Positions 11,051 to 11,224 of a stretch of DNA of 64,000 nt are shown here, piece by piece (within the stretch, counting starts at the first letter, position 1; each line of letters starts with the position of its first letter). The stretch is from Escherichia coli (GTDB taxonomy: Bacteria; Pseudomonadota; Gammaproteobacteria; Enterobacterales; Enterobacteriaceae). Both the position numbers and the translations under genes were made by a program. Location: NCBI RefSeq assembly GCF_003334785.1, contig NZ_QOWV01000001.1. The stretch is one strand, 5' to 3'. Below the pieces are notes generated by a model. It ran no database searches and was not told the origin of the DNA. It worked only from the letters and a program-made list of their open reading frames with translations.

Positions 11051-11224
11051 ATGAAGCGGAGTAGAACGGAAGTGGGGCGCTGGCGCATGCAGCGTCAGGC
11101 TAGCCGACGTAAATCGCGTTGGCTTGAGGGGCAATCGCGCCGAAATATGCGTATCCACAGCATCAGGAAGTGCATTCTAAACAAACAGCGTAACTCGTTA
11201 TTGTTTGCGATCTACAATATCTAA
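11051..11224 (+). CDS. yciY: Small basic protein (57 aa), probable YciY
   Basis: ATG 11051 within ORF-track ORF 10940..11224; MKRSRTEVGRWRMQRQASRRKSRW... matches my recollection of YciY between cls and kch; no clear SD. Confidence 0.45.
   Translation: MKRSRTEVGRWRMQRQASRRKSRWLEGQSRRNMRIHSIRKCILNKQRNSLLFAIYNI

Follow-up and report, generated by a model that had tools for sequence, protein, structure and literature searches.

The 370-bp gap between clsA and kch in Escherichia coli contains an open reading frame (ORF) for a short, very basic peptide. Is this ORF a gene at all, and what might its product do? We analysed a 64,000-nt stretch of E. coli DNA (hereafter the window), in which the region is ordered oppF, yciU, clsA, the gap, kch, yciI and tonB. 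The gap runs from the clsA start (10908) to the kch stop (11279). Within it, the ORF listing of the window has an ATG at 11051 and a TAA at 11222-11224 on the + strand, giving 57 codons. The reading frames of the region are as follows.

9448..10908, - strand: clsA, for cardiolipin synthase A; conserved neighbour of yciY, in divergent orientation
10940..11050, + strand: upstream in-frame extension that makes a 94-aa ORF, judged non-coding
11051..11224, + strand: yciY coding sequence (RefSeq; NF033701; dN/dS about 0.09; TetRP start and Venus fusion)
11279..12532, - strand: kch, the convergent downstream gene, an Escherichia-specific neighbour outside the conserved unit

The 57-aa product is MKRSRTEVGRWRMQRQASRRKSRWLEGQSRRNMRIHSIRKCILNKQRNSLLFAIYNI. 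It contains 13 Arg, 4 Lys and 2 Glu, and has a net charge of +15, a pI of 12.0 and a mass of 7.1 kDa. The original prediction described an Arg-rich 57-aa ORF in a 370-bp gap, and its coordinates, length and composition were all confirmed. It also saw no convincing SD sequence and held that the ORF could equally have arisen by chance. For a single sequence this doubt is fair. Of random 370-mers (first-order Markov), 24% carry a complete ATG ORF of 57 aa or more, and 1.5% carry one of 94 aa or more. Within the 17 nt ahead of the yciY ATG, the strongest anti-SD pairing reaches -2.4 kcal/mol, a background level equalled by 46% of random 17-mers of the window, versus -5.4 to -9.3 kcal/mol for clsA, kch, yciI and oppF. 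Since the SD is weak and the length of the ORF unremarkable, the yciY ORF cannot be told from chance on single-sequence evidence. The doubt did not outlast the comparison of genomes, in which purifying selection is seen in the 57-aa frame only. Nor did it outlast the direct evidence, i.e., an initiation site mapped at the ATG at 11051 and an expressed chromosomal Venus fusion (PMC4909307).

Identity of the 57-codon frame

The earlier identification of the ORF as YciY was correct. In the RefSeq record of MG1655, the yciY CDS (WP_001309467.1) maps exactly onto 11051..11224 of the window, and the two sequences are identical. The product also passes the NCBIfam model NF033701 (YciY), a family typed 'hypoth_equivalog' with a curated cut-off of 30 bits. 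It scores 109.8 bits, with residues 1-55 lying on profile positions 1-55 of 56. Of the 94-aa version, only residues 38-92 match this model. A Pfam-A scan of YciY in the installed library matched no family; precomputed annotations give PF26518 "YciY" for all YciY relatives. The window ORF does not differ from the YciY family (NF033701/PF26518) in any respect: it is the founding member, and it has the family's length, its N-terminal motif MKRSRxEVxRWRMxRQ and its place beside clsA.

By megablast, the segment 10880-11300 is present in 5423/5426 complete E. coli genomes, where it carries the annotation "yciY: YciY family protein", and yciY is full-length in 5422/5426. The sole genome among the 5423 matching ones that lacks a full-length copy is that of strain C3728, a human faecal isolate, where an IS1A insertion cuts off the C-terminus of YciY (L088 3172..4045). 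Thus, yciY is dispensable at least in that strain. Thirteen of the 5429 yciY matches in the E. coli collection sit on records typed as plasmids.

We consider it very probable that 11051..11224 is yciY and that yciY is a real, translated, monocistronic small gene. As such it is already known. It is annotated in RefSeq, NCBIfam and Pfam, and its translation has already been shown by published experiments.

Selection on the frame and evidence of translation

A protein search returned 128 YciY clusters, from Citrobacter, Salmonella, Kluyvera, Enterobacter, Yokenella, Cronobacter, Klebsiella, Raoultella, Rouxiella and other genera. YciY-family clusters are also listed for Dickeya, Edwardsiella, Morganella, Pantoea, Pectobacterium, Proteus, Providencia, Serratia and Yersinia in the supplement of Fesenko et al. 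(2024; PMC11188072). When one genome per species was scanned, a relative was encoded in 334 species-level genomes. A profile search run exhaustively over 1.84 billion representatives found YciY in only 38 clusters, so the family is narrow. Enterobacterial yciY loci also turned up in records labelled 'Chryseobacterium sp. 18061' (L071) and 'Listeria monocytogenes' (P0043); these are probably contaminated or mislabelled assemblies.

The loci compared below are the best 80 of the 334 by protein similarity, a choice that biases dN downward. An ATG is found at the same site in 80/80 loci, and the ORF that follows is 57 aa long, or 59 aa in the Cedecea/Buttiauxella group. The in-frame open stretch upstream of this ATG varies from 3 to 91 codons among the 80 loci. 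In many genera a stop is met 3-14 codons before the ATG, and an upstream ATG is absent in most loci.

The substitution pattern within the frame is that of a protein-coding gene. Across 79 distinct coding sequences, the entropy by codon position is 0.37/0.22/1.08, and third positions are variable in 53/57 codons. By the Nei-Gojobori method, pooled pS is 0.63 and pN 0.11 (pN/pS 0.17), and the Jukes-Cantor corrected dN/dS is 0.085 (79 sequences); for codons 1-37, dN/dS is 0.059. Synonymous sites are thus near saturation (pS 0.58-0.63), and still the protein is at least 77% identical over the 80 loci. The other frames behave differently. Both shifted sense frames contain stops in 79/79 sequences and the antisense frames in 54-78/79, so that none of the five is open in all sequences, and pN/pS exceeds 1.4 in 3/5 of them. 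At the 62 loci where all neighbours were full-length and ungapped, dN/dS is 0.087 for yciY, 0.024 for clsA, 0.020 for yciU and 0.040 for yciI. Conservation and dN/dS within Escherichia had been proposed as a check on the ORF, and the outcome favours coding: K-12 compared with E. coli, cryptic-clade strains, E. whittamii and E. albertii shows 26 nucleotide differences and a single amino-acid change (K21R). The 57-aa frame of yciY is kept across the Enterobacteriaceae and in more distant Enterobacterales, with purifying selection on its amino acids.

Translation of yciY in E. coli has been addressed by Nakahigashi et al. (2016; PMC4909307), who mapped initiation sites by tetracycline-arrested ribosome profiling (TetRP). 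Their selected intergenic starts include P_ECK1243_1244_1306812, on the + strand at 1306812-1306985, with a product of 57 aa and the remark "New protein(2014) yciY" (PMC4909307). The nucleotide and protein sequences of this entry are identical to those of the window ORF, and it is the sole table entry for its intergenic region (PMC4909307). A chromosomal fusion of Venus to the last codon of yciY (IVP3) served in the same study as a positive control in both LB and glucose minimal medium (PMC4909307). The authors source yciY to EcoGene 3.0 and to the sRNA screen of Wassarman (2001) (PMC4909307). Our full-text literature search on yciY found no experiment or annotation that assigns a function to it, and a search with b4595 gave nothing relevant.

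The original prediction also held that the 94-aa version was unlikely, and this was correct. In other genera, an in-frame stop can be only 3 codons before the ATG. The ATG at 10940 lies upstream of a conserved TATAAT, and the only start that TetRP selected in the gap is the ATG of the 57-aa frame. The 94-aa extension as a whole lies upstream of and across the promoter-like site of yciY (see below), and no TetRP-selected start is reported there.

Transcription unit and genomic neighbourhood

The gap contains four further features, two of them promoter-like sites that stand back to back.

10943..10970, - strand: promoter-like site of clsA, TTGCCA-16-TAAACT (scan, 9/12 matches)
10992..11019, + strand: sigma-70 promoter-like site of yciY, TGGTCA-16-TATAAT (consensus scan, 10/12 matches)
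11040..11042, + strand: SD-like minimal GAG, 8 nt ahead of the ATG (conservation of at least 95% over 80 loci)
11232..11250, no strand assigned: hairpin GGGCACC-ATTGC-GGTGCCC, 7 nt past the yciY stop

Judged from the sequence, yciY would be transcribed from its own sigma-70-type promoter, back to back with the clsA promoter. The -10 box TATAAT at 11014-11019 is at least 95% conserved in the 80 loci. Transcription would start at about 11025-11027, and the resulting leader of about 25 nt is predicted to be unstructured and AU-rich, with the minimal GAG as its sole SD element. The spacer of the promoter-like site in E. coli includes a G5-T-G5 run (11003..11013), which is not conserved outside Escherichia. 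A measured yciY transcription start was not found in the literature search.

The absence of a convincing SD is borne out in E. coli; nonetheless the GAG at -11..-9 is conserved over the 80 loci, with variable bases around it. The mean anti-SD energy over the loci is -3.0 kcal/mol, compared with -2.4 in E. coli. RNAalifold found no conserved RNA structure over the start region of yciY (0 pairs). A 5′ hairpin that sequesters the SD (CUCU...AGAG) was considered and dropped as unconvincing: RNAalifold supports 0 pairs, when the sequences are folded one by one, the GAG is paired in 57% of them compared with 40% of 5′-shuffled controls, and the MFE is -3.8 compared with -3.3 kcal/mol in such controls.

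Downstream, the hairpin at 11232..11250 has invariant stems and a variable loop in the 80 loci and is present in the MFE fold of the mRNA. It is preceded by an A-run and followed by a T-run in many genera; these flanking runs are poor in E. coli, and the poor T-run is why a simple terminator scan did not call the E. coli hairpin. The hairpin is probably a bidirectional terminator common to yciY and the convergent gene (yciI or kch), as the A- and T-runs of many genera suggest, and yciY transcription would stop at it. We rejected the idea that yciY is a leader peptide or an upstream regulatory ORF, as the next gene (kch, or yciI elsewhere) runs convergently and the stop codon has a conserved hairpin behind it. 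The predicted yciY mRNA (11024..11262) folds at -82.3 kcal/mol, more stable than dinucleotide shuffles (z = -3.4), which may simply reflect its GC-rich Arg codons. An Rfam scan of 10500-11700 gave only a chance-level CRISPR-DR35 match inside kch (E = 0.93).

Upstream, clsA is divergent from yciY in 80/80 Enterobacteriaceae loci, with the start codons 136-146 nt apart. The GAGTTTACGCAT block that holds the clsA -10 box is conserved in these loci. A distance of 21 bp separates the -35 boxes of the clsA and yciY promoter-like sites, with conserved A-rich blocks between the sites. The fixed spacing of the two starts, the back-to-back promoter-like sites and the A-rich blocks may mark a shared regulatory region. 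The divergent pairing with clsA suggests that yciY is co-regulated with cardiolipin synthase. The linkage reaches beyond the Enterobacteriaceae loci. In distant members of the family (L082-L085), the divergent neighbour is still a cardiolipin synthase, of 486 aa with two PLDc_2 domains, and the spacers are 191-253 nt. What lies downstream of yciY in these distant loci is either an MCP gene or a 244-aa ORF with a bestrophin-like gene and dbpA after it. Linkage between yciU and clsA is conserved to the same degree as that between clsA and yciY (80 loci).

The other flank is less constant. A full-length Kch match adjoins yciY in Escherichia loci only; elsewhere yciI or other, inserted genes come directly after the hairpin. 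The description of the ORF as "cls-kch intergenic" therefore fits Escherichia only, and the conserved unit is the divergent clsA-yciY pair. By comparison with loci L007-L081, kch seems to have been inserted between the hairpin and yciI in the Escherichia lineage. In several Citrobacter and Enterobacter loci, a weak Kch-like match (27-40% identity) occurs instead in the interval that separates oppF from yciU.

Possible roles of YciY

AlphaFold2, run on a 26-sequence alignment, predicts YciY as one continuous helix over residues 5-56 (mean pLDDT 90.8). The protein is very hydrophilic. Its GRAVY is -1.14, its mean hydrophobicity -0.6 to -1.1, and the mean of its most hydrophobic 18-residue window 0.04. 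The hydrophobic moment of the whole helix is 0.218, compared with 0.168 +/- 0.087 in shuffled sequences, and 27% of the shuffles match it. Since YciY is this hydrophilic and its hydrophobic moment is not significant, a transmembrane or classical membrane-surface helix is unlikely. We thus rejected a small transmembrane protein or type I toxin, as there is no hydrophobic segment able to span a membrane and Fesenko et al. list YciY as non-TM (PMC11188072). A membrane-binding amphipathic helix was likewise rejected, the moment not being above that of shuffles. The YciY clusters are also scored as non-disordered and without a CDD domain by these authors (PMC11188072). A bZIP-like arrangement of basic region and zipper was set aside too: judged by eye, the C-terminal heptad positions are not consistently apolar, and the position of the Asn is variable in YciY (Q14 in E. 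coli; Q/L/V/S in relatives).

Within the protein, residues 1-37 are almost invariant all round the helix, and all faces of residues 3-31 are conserved. The invariant N-terminal core, taken from an alignment of 26 sequences from at least 20 genera plus 138 distinct sequences, comprises M1, S4, E7, V8, R10, W11, R12, M13, R15 and Q16. Lys replaces R10, R12, R15, R19, R20, R23, R30 or R31 in only 0-2 of the 138 distinct sequences, and K2 and K21 swap with Arg in 12-19% of them. That Arg is strictly kept where K2 and K21 are free argues for a polyanion being recognised specifically, not through bulk charge. This argument is weakened because a change from CGN to AAR needs two mutations.

We tentatively propose, at a little under an even chance, that the arginine-rich helix of YciY binds a polyanion, most likely structured RNA (rRNA or mRNA) or the ribosome. 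The evidence for RNA binding consists of the composition of YciY and its pattern of conservation. The helix would recognise a specific polyanionic partner. That partner would most likely be structured ribosomal or messenger RNA, bound in the fashion of an arginine-rich-motif (ARM) peptide or a small basic ribosomal protein, and the mildly apolar C-terminal tail SLLFAIYNI would give self-association or a protein contact. ARM peptides and small basic ribosomal proteins bind RNA. Like the ARM peptides (lambda N, P22 N, HK022 Nun and HIV Rev) and the small basic ribosomal proteins (bL34, bS21 and the N-terminal helix of uS14), YciY is short, helical, dominated by Arg and has a conserved Trp, with every face conserved and Arg strictly retained; a typical ARM is much shorter than the 52-residue helix of YciY. 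There is a weak alignment of YciY to residues 32-62 of uS14m. This N-terminal helix of mitoribosomal uS14m was the best hit when the PDB was searched with a YciY profile, and at E = 0.14 it is insignificant. A sequence search gives no sign of YciY in the solved structures of the E. coli ribosome. A Foldseek search of the AlphaFold2 model against the PDB gave no matches, as expected of a single helix, and PHROG and PADLOC searches with YciY gave none either. YciY has no significant sequence or fold match to ARM peptides or ribosomal proteins, so that the resemblance points to a possible mode of binding, not to membership of either group.

The main rival to binding of RNA or the ribosome places YciY in the cardiolipin pathway. 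Anionic phospholipid (cardiolipin or phosphatidylglycerol) or ClsA itself would be the ligand of the basic helix, YciY would modulate cardiolipin synthesis, and the divergent promoter region common to yciY and clsA would co-regulate the two genes. Divergence from clsA is the single feature of the family that never varies (80/80 loci, and the distant members), the promoter-like sites of the two genes stand back to back and are conserved, and YciY is rich in both Arg and Trp. There is also a precedent for a synthase with a helper encoded by a neighbouring gene, as the cardiolipin synthase ClsC reportedly needs the neighbour-encoded YmdB (Tan et al., 2012, PNAS). Like YmdB and the small-protein modulators of membrane enzymes, YciY is small and encoded beside a membrane enzyme, ClsA, with a linkage that is order-wide. 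MgrB, AcrZ, MgtS and KdpF are hydrophobic single-pass membrane proteins. YciY differs from such modulators in being strongly hydrophilic, predicted non-TM and divergently transcribed rather than co-operonic. Its helix has a very low hydrophobicity and no significant hydrophobic moment, unlike amphipathic helices at membrane surfaces. The conservation of all helix faces and the strict preference for Arg over Lys point to specific recognition, not generic charge, and the linkage to clsA may be inherited synteny, given that yciU-clsA is equally conserved. We regard a role in the cardiolipin pathway as unlikely.

A role for the RNA instead of the peptide is far less probable still. Here the translation of the ORF would matter and the peptide would not, or the transcript would act mainly as RNA, by interference with clsA or with kch/yciI or as a dual-function molecule. 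The stability of the mRNA fold above that of shuffles (z = -3.4), the convergence of yciY with kch at a common hairpin and the annotation of the locus via an sRNA screen (Wassarman, 2001, per Nakahigashi et al.; PMC4909307) speak for such a role. Against it, selection acts on the amino acids (dN/dS of 0.06 in codons 1-37, at a pS of 0.58-0.63), there is no Rfam match and no conserved 5′ structure, and the z-score of the fold may reflect the GC-rich Arg codons. Finally, a chance ORF in non-coding DNA, or a 94-aa product read from 10940, would suit the weak SD, an ORF length that is unremarkable for a 370-bp gap and the 68-98-aa versions that some gene callers emit, and is scarcely credible, being already contradicted by conservation confined to the 57-aa frame, by stops 3-14 codons upstream in many genera, by a promoter -10 box inside the extension, by the choice of only the 57-aa ATG in TetRP and by the expressed fusion.

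For annotation, yciY is of low importance. It serves as a calibration case, in which 80 related genomes settle both the coding call and the start codon. The first 37 residues of YciY (dN/dS 0.06) are as constrained as its housekeeping neighbours, and the linkage to clsA holds throughout the Enterobacterales. YciY might be a partner, throughout the order, of either cardiolipin synthase or the translation machinery: a +15-charged single-helix protein, expressed back to back with clsA, that binds a specific RNA or the ribosome, or else ClsA or cardiolipin; we consider this doubtful. If true, YciY would establish a new class of small-protein regulators in enterobacteria, soluble and rich in arginine.
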